Part shown: piece after piece, positions 3,646 through 32,000 of the stretch
How the letters are laid out: each line of letters starts with the position of its first letter
How positions within the stretch are numbered: position 1 is the first letter of the stretch
Source: Acaryochloris marina S15
Lineage (GTDB): Bacteria; Cyanobacteriota; Cyanobacteriia; Thermosynechococcales; Thermosynechococcaceae
Assembly: GCF_018336915.1 (NCBI RefSeq)
Contig: NZ_CP064923.1
Span: forward strand, 3,870,001-3,902,000
Direction: 5' to 3'
DNA length: 32,000 nt
The notes under the pieces: generated by a model
Databases searched by the model: none
What the model was told of the DNA's origin: nothing
What the model saw: the letters and a program-made list of their open reading frames with translations, nothing else
Translations under genes and position numbers: made by a program

Positions 3646-4396
3646 TTTACCGCCTCAGCTTAAAGATGTCGTGGCACAACAGCCTTATCCCCTGCTGTTT
3701 GCCACCATTAGCGGTGCCCATTTGTATGGGTTTCCCTCTGCTGATTCAGACTATGACTTGCGAGGCGTTCATATCTTGCCCCTGAAGGAAGTGATGGGTC
3801 TACAGACAGGACCCGACACACGAGAAATCTCTGCCGATCAGGAGGGTATCGAGCTGGATCTGGTGACTCACGATGTCAAGAAATTTATGGGGTTGCTGCT
3901 AAAGCGAAATGGCTATGTGCTGGAGCAGCTCTACTCTCCACTGATTGTAGCGTCGTCTCCTGAGCATGATGCATTGAAAGAGATCGCAACCCGATGCATC
4001 ACTCGGCACCATAGTCATCACTACCTGGGATTTGCCCAGACCCAATGGCGACTCTTTACCAAAGAATCCCCAGCCCGAGTCAAGCCCCTGCTCTATGTCT
4101 TTCGGGTGCTACTAACAGGAATTCATCTGATGCAAACGGGCGAAATTGAAGCCAATCTCAGGCATTTGAACGAGAAATTTCAATTGCCTTATATTCCCGA
4201 TTTAATCGCCCAAAAATCATTTGGTCCAGAACAAGCCGTGATTAAAGAGACTGATCAGGGGTTCTACCACCAAGAATATAGTCGTCTTTTACAGTGCCTA
4301 GAAAATGCTAGCCAGTCCAGCATCCTCCCAGACAGCCCCTCTGCTGCAGCTGACCTCCATGATCTGTTGGTCAACATTCGGCTGGCTGCTTGTTGA
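3635..4396 (+). CDS. Pol-beta-superfamily nucleotidyltransferase (PF10127/RlaP-like), paralog of 2369..3304
   Basis: NTase signature GAHLYGFPSADSDYDLRG plus LEQLYSPLI. The ORF-track start at 3515 lies inside the previous gene; the in-frame ATG at 3635 (MIFDLPPQL...) gives a 253-aa protein beginning just before the NTase fold. Confidence 0.75.
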   Translation: MIFDLPPQLKDVVAQQPYPLLFATISGAHLYGFPSADSDYDLRGVHILPLKEVMGLQTGPDTREISADQEGIELDLVTHDVKKFMGLLLKRNGYVLEQLYSPLIVASSPEHDALKEIATRCITRHHSHHYLGFAQTQWRLFTKESPARVKPLLYVFRVLLTGIHLMQTGEIEANLRHLNEKFQLPYIPDLIAQKSFGPEQAVIKETDQGFYHQEYSRLLQCLENASQSSILPDSPSAAADLHDLLVNIRLAAC

Positions 4397-28505: not shown

Positions 28506-29711
28506 ATGGCAAAAAAGAAGAAAAAAGAGCCATCAGGCTGTGGATGTGGCAGTATTCCTATCTCCTTAATCTTGTTGATTTTAGGCGTTGGGGGTTGGTG
28601 GTTTAGCCAAGCAGAGAATCGACAGGTAGGTCGATATTTCCCTAAAGATACAACGGTTACCATTCCCGTTCTAAATCAGCCAATCACCCTCAATCCATCT
28701 TCGCCTTCCCCATCTCCTACCTCTAGCACTGTCCCCATTAAACCTGTCGAACCCCTGCCTACGCCAGAAGTGGTTGAAGTTGAAGTACCGAAAGAAATTG
28801 AATTTCCTAAGGCTTGGACTCAAAAGAAGATGAGGGGGATTTATCTGAGTCGGTATCAAGTCACCAATAACGCTTCTGAGGAAACTATTCGAGAGCGGGT
28901 GCGGTATTATCGCGCCCAAGGGTTCAACACGATTTTGCATGGAGTATGGGGCAATGCCTGTACCATGTATAAAAGTGAAGTGATGGCCCAACAGTTGGGG
29001 TTTCCTAGCTGCCCTAATCTGTTTCAAGATCAATGGCTAGACTGGTTAATCGACGAAGCCCATAAGCAAGATATGCAAGTGCATGCCTACTTTGAGAAAG
29101 GCATCAAAATTGATAAAAATAGCCCTGTTTATGAACGAGCTGTGGCTGAAAAGTGGCTGGTCCCCGGTGTAGATAAAACCTATAGCGGTATCGAGCATTA
29201 TGTCTTGGACGTGGACAACCCAAAAGTAGCAGACTTATTCACAGAGATCACGGTTGAGTTTGTGCAGAAATATCCCACCATTGATGCGGTGCAGTGGGAT
29301 GACTATTTGGGATACCATGCAGAACTGCCAGGCCAGGTAGACCGAACCGCCAGCCTGACGAAATTTTCTCAACGCATGATCAAAGAGATGAAACAAGCCA
29401 ACCCGAAGGTGAGTTTCGATCTTTGTCACCATAATCCTTACTGGTCCAAACGCTATTTTGCTGCAGATTGGAAGAACTGGGATGTGGATCGAGTCTTTGT
29501 CCAAGCCTATAACGAAGCTAATTTTGCCAAGGAATTAGAATACGCCCACGCCCAGGTTGGCATTGCCATTACAGACAACCAACTCCACCGATTACAAGGG
29601 CTGGTCGAGGACCCTAAGGTTAAAGGTATTCTAGTGTTTCCCCTATCCGGCAAACCTGAAAAAACGGCAGTAAAAGTTAAAGACCTGGTACTCAAGATAG
29701 ACAAGGGGTAA
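28506..29711 (+). CDS. Membrane-anchored glycoside-hydrolase-like protein (GHL10 / PF02638-like TIM barrel)
   Basis: The 401-aa ORF has a Lys-rich N-terminus, a TM anchor and a Pro/Ser/Thr-rich linker. The following domain resembles GHL10 proteins (RGIYLSRY..., FNTILHGVWGN, VHAYFEKG, VQWDDYLGY), assigned from memory of the family. Confidence 0.6.
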   Translation: MAKKKKKEPSGCGCGSIPISLILLILGVGGWWFSQAENRQVGRYFPKDTTVTIPVLNQPITLNPSSPSPSPTSSTVPIKPVEPLPTPEVVEVEVPKEIEFPKAWTQKKMRGIYLSRYQVTNNASEETIRERVRYYRAQGFNTILHGVWGNACTMYKSEVMAQQLGFPSCPNLFQDQWLDWLIDEAHKQDMQVHAYFEKGIKIDKNSPVYERAVAEKWLVPGVDKTYSGIEHYVLDVDNPKVADLFTEITVEFVQKYPTIDAVQWDDYLGYHAELPGQVDRTASLTKFSQRMIKEMKQANPKVSFDLCHHNPYWSKRYFAADWKNWDVDRVFVQAYNEANFAKELEYAHAQVGIAITDNQLHRLQGLVEDPKVKGILVFPLSGKPEKTAVKVKDLVLKIDKG

Positions 29712-30017
29712 ATGGCAGGCTTGAATGGGGGGTGATAGCCATTTCCACCAACAGCACTATCATTGCAACATCGGATTGAGTGATTCAAACGCTCGTAGTG
29801 GGACTGCGATCGCAAATACACTCAGAACCTTAATATCGAACCAAACACAATTAATAGGTGTAATATCGCTACCATGCTCCGCCAGCTACTCCTCTCAGCA
29901 GGCTAATGACAATACCCAGACTAACCTCTAGCAATCGGTTTAGAGAGGTCGCTTTCGAAAAAAGCTGTTGCACCTAAAATTTTGTTTACACCTAAAATCT
30001 CAGCATGGCTTAGAGAT

Positions 30018-30053
30018 AAAAAAAGACACCCCCTTCTGCCTCAAGAGAGTGTC
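30018..30053 (-). terminator. Rho-independent terminator of the psbE-like/psbF-like operon
   Basis: The minus-strand RNA GACACUCUCU-UGAGGCAGA-AGGGGGUGUC forms a 10-bp stem with two G.U pairs, followed by UUUUUUU. It lies 24 nt downstream of the stop codon. Confidence 0.7.
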
Positions 30054-30076
30054 AAGCTAGCGTCGTTTTGCCAATC

Positions 30077-30376
30077 TTATTCGCGTTGTAAGACTTCTTG
30101 GAGTTCTTGCAACGTCGGACCACCAAACAGTATTACGTTCCATACAACTGAAAACAAGATTGGCGCCAGCACCAAGGCGAGCCGCAGATCAAGTCCAGCA
30201 ATGACCGTTGGAGCAACTGCCTCATAGACATTCATTCGGTCAATAAACTGCATGGATGCAATTGCGCCGAGGAACCACACCAAGGGAACACCCAACGTGT
30301 GTACCGCTAACCATCGCACCGTATAGATGGGATATGTCCTTTCAGGAGGGCGCTGGAGTCGAGTTCTAGATGTCAT
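30077..30376 (-). CDS. psbF: Cytochrome b559 beta-subunit (PsbF)-like protein fused in frame to a PsbY-like transmembrane helix
   Basis: Residues 1-47 match PsbF ([33 protein letters not shown], heme His conserved). Canonical PsbF ends at this R, but here the frame continues for 52 aa with a second TM helix. AGGAG lies 9 nt upstream of the ATG. Confidence 0.75.
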
Positions 30377-30392
30377 ATCTAATGTCTCCTAA

Positions 30393-30662
30393 TTAGTTGG
30401 TGTCAAGGCTTGGACTAAGATTGCGGAATTCATCGATTTGCTGTTTGCCGGCATATCGATCCGTCACGATCTGAACCTGAGACTCAGACTGAGAAAAATA
30501 TTCATTAGGATGGGGCGTCCCAAAGACGTCATATGCTAGCCCAGTGCTGACAAAAAACCAGCCCGATATAAAAATAGCTGGAATATTGATGACATGGAGC
30601 TTCCAGAACGAAAAATCGGTAATTATCTCGCCAAATGGGCGCTCACCTGTTACACCGGCCAT
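30393..30662 (-). CDS. psbE: Cytochrome b559 alpha-subunit (PsbE)-like protein, divergent copy
   Basis: [51 protein letters not shown] matches PsbE, with the heme His conserved. The ORF starts at 30668, but AGGAG spacing favours the second ATG at 30662 ([10 protein letters not shown]). Confidence 0.85.
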
Positions 30663-30679
30663 AAGCATCTCCTAACTTA

Positions 30680-30744
30680 ATTGAGAATAATTCTTATTCA
30701 CAGCATCATTATTGCAAGTGATTATCAATAATGCAAGAGATAAT
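30680..30744. promoter_or_regulatory. Cluster of Fur-box-like A/T-rich motifs immediately upstream of the psbE-like gene
   Basis: ATTGAGAATAATTCTTATTC (30680..30699) contains the palindrome GAATAA-TTC-TTATTC. Direct repeats ATTGCAAGTGATTA (30711..30724) and AATGCAAGAGATAA (30730..30743) lie 19 bp apart. GATTATCAATAAT and GATAAT hexamers are also present. Confidence 0.4.
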
Positions 30745-31079: not shown

Positions 31080-31526
31080 ATGTATACTTCCAGTTCGCTC
31101 AAAGCAGAATTAAATGAGAAAGGGTGGCGACTAACTCCTCAACGGGAAATCATCTTGACCGCCTTTCAAGAGTTACAGAAAGGGCAACATCTTAGCGCCG
31201 AAGATCTCTACGAGCTGTTATTACAACAAGGCAGCCCCATCAGCCTCTCAACCATTTATAGAAATACCAAACTCATGTCTCATATGGGGATTCTCCGAGA
31301 ACTAGAATTCGCTGAAGGGCATAAACATTATGAGCTGAACCAACCCTACCCGAATCATCATCATCATCTGATCTGTGTCAAATGTAATCAAACGATTGAG
31401 TTCAAAAGTGATTCAATCCTCAAAGTGGGGAAAACCAAAGCCAAGCAATCTGGTTTTCATCTCCTAGACTGTCAATTGACGATTCACGCCATTTGCCCAA
31501 CTTGCAAAAATGCAAAGGGACAGTGA
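31080..31526 (+). CDS. fur: Ferric uptake regulator (FurA-type Fur-family transcriptional regulator)
   Basis: The 148-aa ORF has LKAELNEKGWRLTPQRE, a winged-helix region, the HHHHLICVKCNQTIEF metal site and a C-terminal CPTC. It is very similar to cyanobacterial FurA/Sll0567 as recalled. Confidence 0.9.
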   Translation: MYTSSSLKAELNEKGWRLTPQREIILTAFQELQKGQHLSAEDLYELLLQQGSPISLSTIYRNTKLMSHMGILRELEFAEGHKHYELNQPYPNHHHHLICVKCNQTIEFKSDSILKVGKTKAKQSGFHLLDCQLTIHAICPTCKNAKGQ

Positions 31527-31922: not shown

Positions 31923-32000
31923 GCATTACACCCTATAGAGCAAACTGAGAAAATTCAGTAGTAAATATATCTATTCTGATTGAAACTCAATTTGTCGATA

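Follow-up and report, generated by a model that had tools for sequence, protein, structure and literature searches.

The cyanobacterium Acaryochloris marina S15 carries, within a stretch of 32,000 nucleotides of contig NZ_CP064923.1 (positions 3,870,001 to 3,902,000; hereafter the window, in whose own coordinates all features are given), a small operon that raises the question of why a genome should hold a second set of genes for cytochrome b559. The operon consists of a psbE-like gene, here called psbE', and a gene for a 99-aa protein which begins as PsbF, the beta subunit of the cytochrome, and runs on into a second hydrophobic helix resembling PsbY, a subunit of photosystem II (PSII). Computational analysis of this locus leads us to conclude, with high confidence, that the pair is a paralogous and conserved form of cytochrome b559, its beta subunit joined in one chain with a PsbY homolog. 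In literature searches on the fusion, on paralogs of psbE and psbF and on the locus tags, neither the architecture nor the family nor the gene cluster turned up. Annotations of the gene itself already exist, and transcript levels of the A. marina pair have been published; what is new is the recognition of the architecture, which is hidden by the names that annotation pipelines have given to the fusion in the databases ('cytochrome b559 subunit beta' or 'Photosystem II protein Y').

Reading of the open reading frames (ORFs) on the minus strand revealed a compact two-gene unit at 30015..30673, with psbE' followed by the psbF::psbY-like gene. The psbE' gene occupies 30393..30662 and encodes 89 aa from the ATG at 30662, and an alternative ORF from the first in-frame ATG (30393..30668) would encode 91 aa. 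The true start is almost certainly the ATG at 30662, because of its Shine-Dalgarno spacing and the canonical MAGxTGERP N-terminus of the resulting product (MAGVTGERP...): the AGGAG at 30669..30673 lies 6 nt ahead of this ATG and abuts the one at 30668. The NCBI annotation of the strain also gives a product of 89 aa. The fusion gene (30077..30376, 99 aa) starts 16 bases past the psbE' stop codon (30395..30393) and has its own AGGAG at 30386..30390, 2 nt past that stop and 9 nt ahead of the ATG at 30376. Its product comprises a PsbF domain (aa 1-47, 30236..30376), a linker of 13 aa (aa 48-60, 30197..30235) predicted to form a lumenal loop, and a PsbY-homologous domain (aa 61-99, 30080..30196) with the second transmembrane helix, the conserved P-x6-W (P72...W79) and a family-specific FG(K/G)PT motif; the stop codon is at 30077..30079. 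An intrinsic terminator follows at 30015..30053, in which a stem-loop (30053..30025) with an 11-bp stem, including five G-C pairs, and a 7-nt loop is succeeded by TTTTTTT. A preliminary description of the stretch, made from the letters, had proposed a two-gene operon with ribosome binding sites and a terminator of its own, and these signals were all read here; the peptide strings that it cited, including the read-through and the second hydrophobic helix, were all located in the ORFs. A search of the window found no psbL, psbJ or stand-alone psbY, in line with its statement that psbL and psbJ do not accompany the pair.

The family membership of the two products was examined with curated profiles. 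PsbE' scored 117.9 bits against TIGR01332, the cytochrome b559 alpha equivalog (cut-off 93.95), and residues 13-47 of the fusion scored 68.2 bits against TIGR01333, the beta equivalog (cut-off 61.15). The heme ligand His23 and Arg8 are retained in PsbE', and His23 is invariant in 30 paralogs. The fusion retains His26 (equivalent to heme His24 in T. elongatus numbering), the Arg equivalent to R19 and the string TVRWLAVH, with the heme His and the R19-equivalent invariant across 33 members of the fusion family. Heme binding with PsbE in PSII is a predicted property of the PsbE'/fusion pair. The earlier claim of a PsbE-like protein together with a 99-aa protein whose first 47 residues are PsbF, both keeping the heme His, is thereby upheld. 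The fusion departs from the single-helix PsbF form of ~39-46 aa, which ends ...QFIQR ahead of psbL and psbJ, in having 99 aa and a second helix, with the terminator directly behind.

The C-terminal half matched PsbY models only, each time below the curated cut-off (Pfam PF06298, 18.8-20.8 bits against 24; NCBIfam NF009711, 22.6-24.8 bits against 48). A single-sequence search of the PDB retrieved Synechocystis PsbY at E = 6e-4 with P-x6-W aligned, and 21/21 non-redundant C-terminal halves of the family matched the PsbY model (best E = 7.9e-7) and none of the other families. The profile of C-terminal halves retrieved PsbY chains from the PDB at E values of 1.4e-5, 3.5e-5, 1.6e-3 and 7.9e-3, its other matches there being the deposited fusion chain, one sub-threshold antibody chain and weaker chains. 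When it was run exhaustively against 1.84 billion representatives, significant scores went only to the representative of the fusion family itself, to three PsbY proteins of picocyanobacteria and to one spurious repeat protein, and hhalign against PsbY gave 97.8% probability (E 1.2e-12, 41/41 columns). These comparisons indicate that the extension is truly homologous to PsbY, though divergent; we name it PsbY-like, not PsbY, because it fails the membership cut-offs. Of the two halves proposed in the preliminary description, the PsbF half thus stands above its cut-off, whereas the PsbY half falls below the curated thresholds and yet proves homologous by profile tests; the P-x6-W spacing that had been aligned with PsbY was borne out.

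Compared with PsbY itself (Ycf32, a single helix of ~40 aa), the fusion half shares a full-length match, P-x6-W, an N-terminal (I/L)D-x-R and, in most members, an amphipathic basic C-tail. It differs in not being a stand-alone gene as well as in its scores, and its invariant motif S-x2-W-x4-F-G-x-P-T-x2-E takes the place of A-x2-W-x4-I-G-x-A-A in PsbY. PsbY sits against cytochrome b559 at the PSII periphery, in keeping with the preliminary description, and its conserved Trp has been discussed as functionally relevant (PMC4823308). In the fusion this residue is W79, invariant across the family.

In PSII structures the C-terminus of PsbF and the N-terminus of PsbY are both lumenal. Across the fusion family the linker that would join them is variable in sequence and 10-17 aa long. 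An AlphaFold2 model built from the family alignment, of moderate confidence (pLDDT 70, pTM 0.40), shows two long helices spanning 17-45 and 64-98, and a Foldseek search of the PDB with this model gave zero matches. The modelled topology of two helices, in which the N-terminus is basic and so, in most members, is the C-terminus, would be compatible with occupancy of the PsbY site beside cytochrome b559. The meeting of both ends in the lumen, to which the preliminary description had drawn attention, fits such a predicted hairpin.

The fusion family is old and conserved, occurs in several lineages and is not peculiar to this genome. About 40 protein clusters of 95-107 aa, from independent assemblies, share the PsbF::PsbY-like architecture, the carriers being Acaryochloris, Okeania, Trichodesmium, Leptolyngbyaceae and marine metagenome-assembled genomes (MAGs). 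Data with one genome per species contained ten fusion loci, including those of A. marina MBIC11017, an Acaryochloris MAG, Trichodesmium sp. MAG_R03, a Leptolyngbyaceae MAG and several marine MAGs, and psbE' adjoins the fusion gene in the loci inspected. The fusion protein is identical in two Acaryochloris strains, 'Moss Beach' and S15. Invariant residues lie in both halves and include Y15-T19, R21, H26, W34, P72, S76, W79, F84, P87 and E91. In the linker and PsbY-like part, the ratio of nonsynonymous to synonymous substitution rates (dN/dS) has values of 0.07-0.30, similar to those in the PsbF part, and both halves are under purifying selection. Since it is conserved in several cyanobacterial lineages, the fused pair is real; the sequencing error at the read-through against which the preliminary description had cautioned is excluded by the same open frame in the ~40 clusters and by these dN/dS values. 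Its suggestion that the fusion arose by loss of a stop codon found no support, as no unfused intermediate was found and psbY does not lie beside psbF in canonical operons. Two loci with matches past PsbF residue 47 (L011 and L019) were considered as fusion intermediates and rejected, L011 being an ordinary psbEFLJ operon. A separate set of metagenome proteins (P0041-P0053, 85-173 aa) carries PsbF and PsbL Pfam domains, some with a PsbE lumenal domain; these are apparent psbF-psbL read-throughs and may be artefacts of gene calling, sequences from organelles or further real fusions.

The pair is a paralog and not a replacement of the canonical cytochrome b559 genes. The canonical cluster rubA-ycf48-psbE-psbF-psbL-psbJ, with a psbF of 44 aa, was located in four Acaryochloris records (AP026075.1, CP071717.1, AFEJ02000001.1 and CP000828.1, the last from MBIC11017), as the preliminary description had presumed in calling the pair a paralogous module. 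In MBIC11017 the 44-aa psbF directly follows the psbE gene AM1_2630 (locus L103, 1461-1595, CP000828.1), and the canonical Acaryochloris PsbE is identical to chain E of PDB 7YMI. Similarly, one Leptolyngbyaceae MAG carries a fusion locus (L008) plus a canonical locus (L041). Stand-alone psbY was absent from the loci examined, no genome-wide search of Acaryochloris having been made. In a neighbour-joining tree of PsbE the PsbE' paralogs group together with 56% bootstrap, and together with a class of PsbE in which the heme His is replaced by Gln they split from canonical PsbE with 96% bootstrap; within the limits of its 56-residue alignment, the tree is consistent with a single origin of PsbE'.

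The pair shares with canonical cytochrome b559 the equivalog matches of both subunits, the bis-His ligation, alpha-R8 and beta-R19, the alpha-before-beta gene order, the tight spacing and a near-identical alpha lumenal segment. It differs in being a second copy away from rubA-ycf48, in having no psbL and psbJ after it and in the PsbY-like helix at the C-terminus of its beta subunit. A precedent for PsbY within a larger two-helix precursor exists in the plant PsbY polyprotein (PsbY-1/PsbY-2; PMC4823308), but the plant protein is a PsbY-PsbY tandem cleaved into two products of ~5 kDa, whereas the partner here is PsbF and there is no sign of processing. A second psbF outside psbEFLJ is also known, from work on far-red-light PSII structure, as PsbF2 of Synechococcus sp. 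PCC 7335 (PMC8689208). In contrast to the fusion, PsbF2 is a duplicate of recent date, is not fused and shares 75% identity with PsbF1; it is encoded in a psbO-nblA-psbV operon without a paired psbE and has been detected in PSII by mass spectrometry. The 'psbF2' of far-red light photoacclimation (FaRLiP) was ruled out as the same thing, being an unrelated unfused duplicate. Finally, the NCBIfam families 'cytochrome b559 subunit beta, long form' (NF002717 and NF002720) also describe a PsbF of ~97-98 aa, but they place the PsbF domain C-terminally (profile positions 55-95) and the extension N-terminally, which is the opposite order, and the fusion scored 53.8 bits against NF002717 (cut-off 153) and 47.8 against NF002720 (cut-off 127).

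How far the heme pocket of the second cytochrome resembles the first was examined by comparing 142 canonical with 30 paralog PsbE sequences (T. elongatus numbering). Relative to canonical PsbE, the psbE' product of the window carries S16D, R18S, Y19F, V21K, I22L, T26N, L30I and A33S; S16D, Y19F, I22L, T26N, L30I and A33S are fixed in the paralogs and V21K is present in most. Arg18, invariant in the 142 canonical sequences, is lost in the paralogs, being replaced by Ser in 17, Glu in 10, and Lys, Gly and Gln in one each, with Ser in the window. The lumenal segment at positions 40-56 is nearly identical to that of canonical PsbE. In the beta subunit, F16Y and F32W are invariant in the 33 fusion-family members and absent from the canonical set. 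The residues alpha-Arg8, alpha-Arg18 and beta-Arg19 contact the heme propionates; in T. elongatus the high-potential form gives way to an intermediate form upon R18S-alpha or F32Y-beta mutation, and the low-potential form predominates in PSII cores of Synechocystis mutants with R7E-alpha and with R17L-beta (PMC4709441). The natural variant alters two of the redox-controlling positions (alpha-18 and beta-32), and the R18S of the window is the engineered substitution itself. Since these are positions at which engineered mutants lose the high-potential form, the midpoint potential of the variant is predicted to be intermediate or low.

The class of PsbE with Gln in place of the heme ligand His23 (…FWIIQIVALPAIFISGF…) is picocyanobacterial and is represented by five distinct sequences from several sources, P0130-P0133 among them. 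It shares several of the paralog-type substitutions. In one example, from a marine picocyanobacterium (QCGB01000002.1, locus L098), psbE (4001-4249) and psbF (4255-4392) occupy the canonical rubA-ycf48-psbE-psbF-psbL-psbJ position, and the PsbF keeps its His and bears the paralog-type Trp32.

The use of the pair by the cell can be judged from a published RNA-seq table of MBIC11017, which lists reads under control, micro-oxic and hyperoxic conditions (PMC5295598). In the same order, reads were 47, 21 and 33 for AM1_1130 (PsbE') and 20, 20 and 20 for AM1_1129 (the fusion, the sole gene labelled PsbF in that table), against 34,459, 11,070 and 17,313 for AM1_2630, the canonical PsbE. The pair is transcriptionally silent under the three oxygen regimes, whereas the canonical genes are among the most expressed; this fits the 'condition-specific' module of the preliminary description. 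The rogue D1 gene psbA1 (AM1_0448) gave 40, 251 and 25 reads and is not co-regulated with the pair under micro-oxia, since it responds while the pair stays flat. An earlier proposal of an alpha-alpha cytochrome b559 in A. marina is said to have rested on a low 'psbF' transcript level. A simpler account of this low level is that the canonical 44-aa psbF went unmeasured.

Gene neighbourhoods add further partners. In eight of 14 fusion-bearing sequences (L001, L003, L004, L006, L007, L008, L091 and L094) two extra genes accompany the pair, in clusters such as those at 6402-8595 of L008 and 1213-4132 of L001. The first encodes a protein of ~197-204 aa that bears a signal peptide and in which two Cys and one His are invariant; no Pfam, NCBIfam or PDB relative was found for it. 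The second encodes a TPR protein of ~235-247 aa with an N-terminal hydrophobic segment, reduced to a truncated ORF of 116 aa in L094. In L006, L007 and L008 a heme oxygenase gene has been inserted immediately behind the fusion. A gene for a CP43-like protein of the IsiA/Pcb family lies beside the cluster in two unrelated lineages, represented by L008 and by MBIC11017, where it is PcbA1; this protein is not among the Pcb subunits observed in the 7YMI complex. In L008 and L094 the cluster is flanked by Crp-family regulators, and the latter locus has a gene for an iron superoxide dismutase ~1 kb upstream. A gene for a Fur-family regulator lies on the plus strand of the window at 31080..31526, divergent from psbE', and such a neighbour was found in Acaryochloris only (the window, L001 and L002). 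The A. marina partner genes lie beyond the Fur gene, so that in the genome of the window they would be expected just past position 32000. Because of the Fur-family neighbour in Acaryochloris and the heme oxygenase and IsiA/Pcb-like genes in clusters elsewhere, our best guess at the inducing trigger, made from gene neighbourhood, is iron or metal limitation.

Taken with the retained PSII features, these data incline us to regard the pair as a conserved, conditionally expressed variant cytochrome b559 with a tethered PsbY, acting in PSII or in PSII assembly complexes, a reading to which we give somewhat better than even odds. Under some inducing condition the pair would replace canonical PsbE, PsbF and PsbY in a fraction of these complexes, with PsbL and PsbJ supplied by the canonical operon. 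Docking in a PSII-like environment is suggested because the alpha lumenal segment (40-56) has been retained. The predicted hairpin, in which both termini would be cytoplasmic because the N-terminus and, in most members, the C-terminus are basic, would put the PsbY-like helix where free PsbY sits beside the cytochrome, and a lumenal loop of 13-17 residues could plausibly bridge the two helices. Tethering would then make PsbY occupancy obligatory and 1:1, and a lowered midpoint potential may alter side-path or photoprotective electron transfer.

Several points weigh against this reading. The fusion is known from genes and transcript counts only. An abstract of 2012 by Kiss and co-workers reportedly states that 'psbE1' and 'psbF' stayed low under ultraviolet-B, high light, far-red light and the inhibitor DBMIB. 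The iron-limitation idea draws on gene neighbourhood only. No upstream motif common to the lineages was found beyond chance, the best 8-mer occurring in 4/7 independent groups (uncorrected p about 0.03) and 7-mers at chance level. None of the partners (the secreted ~197-aa protein, the TPR protein and heme oxygenase) is a known subunit of PSII, which could hint at a role elsewhere. The structural model is of moderate confidence and without Foldseek matches, so that the geometry relative to PSII is a predicted one, and the redox prediction extrapolates from point mutants.

The strongest competitor takes up the partner genes and sees a cytochrome outside PSII, in which the pair would form a free-standing bis-His heme b membrane protein that works with the secreted ~197-aa, TPR and heme oxygenase partners, for example in handling heme or iron or in the redox chemistry of superoxide or oxygen. 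It would account for a neighbourhood that is kept in 8/14 fusion-bearing sequences and contains no genes for PSII subunits, for the heme oxygenase directly after the fusion in three loci, for the superoxide dismutase gene in L094, for the Fur-family neighbour in Acaryochloris and for an operon without its own psbL and psbJ; oxygen-reductase and superoxide activities have moreover been discussed for low- and intermediate-potential cytochrome b559 (PMC4823308). However, the almost unchanged PsbE' lumenal segment and PsbF helix are hard to explain without docking in PSII (D2), PsbY is known solely as a PSII subunit, and the CP43-like genes adjoin the pair in two unrelated lineages. We consider a function outside PSII unlikely, at roughly one chance in five.

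Less probable again, and in our judgement improbable, is a cytochrome b559 of the assembly or repair stage, present transiently in a D2 pre-complex and later exchanged, or marking non-oxygen-evolving PSII. The TPR and secreted partners would then serve as assembly factors; among those of photosystems, TPR proteins that carry signal peptides are a common class. The canonical operon likewise adjoins assembly factors, rubA and ycf48, and cytochrome b559 is required at the first step of PSII assembly, in the D2 module (PMC12661325). Against this, the pair is silent in growing cells, which continuously assemble and repair PSII, and it is not co-induced with psbA1 (40 to 251 reads) under micro-oxia.

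A further view, in which the 99-aa protein does ordinary duty as PsbF in the PSII of Acaryochloris, follows the structural record: the deposited sequence of chain F in 7YMI/7YMM is the 99-aa fusion, named 'Photosystem II protein Y', beside a canonical PsbE as chain E, and AM1_1129 is the only gene labelled PsbF in the transcript table. MBIC11017 nevertheless has the canonical 44-aa PsbF directly after the highly expressed AM1_2630, and the fusion transcript stays at the detection floor. According to the 7YMI paper, T. vulcanus chains were the starting point for the core and were mutated to the annotated A. marina sequences, at 3.3-3.6 A, and no density was seen at the PsbY position, which counts against the fusion because a covalently attached helix cannot dissociate during purification. 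Chain F is probably misassigned, since the canonical psbF stands beside the highly expressed psbE, the fusion is silent and the PsbY density is missing; that the fusion is the working PsbF we regard as very improbable. A decaying duplicate, read-through artefact or sequencing error without function, for which the near-zero expression in the one strain examined could speak, is effectively refuted by the conservation data (the frame open in ~40 clusters, the dN/dS of the extension, the invariant residues in both domains, the ribosome binding sites and terminator, and the conserved partner genes) and has a negligible chance of being right.

If the pair is instead viewed together with its neighbours, it may form the core of an unrecognised conditional gene cluster (variant b559, ~197-aa secreted protein and signal-anchored TPR protein, in some cases with heme oxygenase and an IsiA/Pcb-like antenna) that builds either a distinct variant of PSII, its cytochrome b559 re-tuned and locked to PsbY, or else a heme-protein complex of its own; we offer this as a tentative proposal with the odds against it. 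Were it true, the occurrence of the same heme-pocket set in the picocyanobacterial lineage with a His-less psbE at the canonical position would suggest a second natural b559 'state', with a bearing on the long-debated function of the cytochrome. The physiological role and redox forms of cytochrome b559 are still debated, and the role of PsbY is listed as unclear (PMC12661325, PMC4709441, PMC4823308). A natural variant that alters residues known to control the high-potential form and locks PsbY to the beta subunit is of value here, as its expression and potential would directly test the proposed photoprotective and PsbY-dependent functions. In practical terms, the records to be corrected are the probably misassigned chain F of 7YMI/7YMM, the 'psbF' label in PMC5295598 and the annotation names.

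The remaining features of the window lie around the operon. Between psbE' and the Fur-family gene, AT-rich inverted repeats occur on the minus strand at 30685..30732, namely ATTATTG-N11-CAATAAT (30732..30708) and GAATAA-GAA-TTATTC (30699..30685). They look like Fur boxes and are conserved within Acaryochloris only; they could be regulatory sites of the pair or, equally, the operator of the Fur-family regulator itself. Just downstream of the operon, on the opposite strand, lies a gene for a GHL10-family (glycosyl hydrolase-like 10) protein of 401 aa (28506..29711) with an N-terminal hydrophobic segment and a Pro/Ser-rich linker, which adjoins the operon in MBIC11017 too and not in the other fusion loci. 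The other flanking genes in the window are housekeeping genes, including glgA, uvrC and a TetR-family gene.

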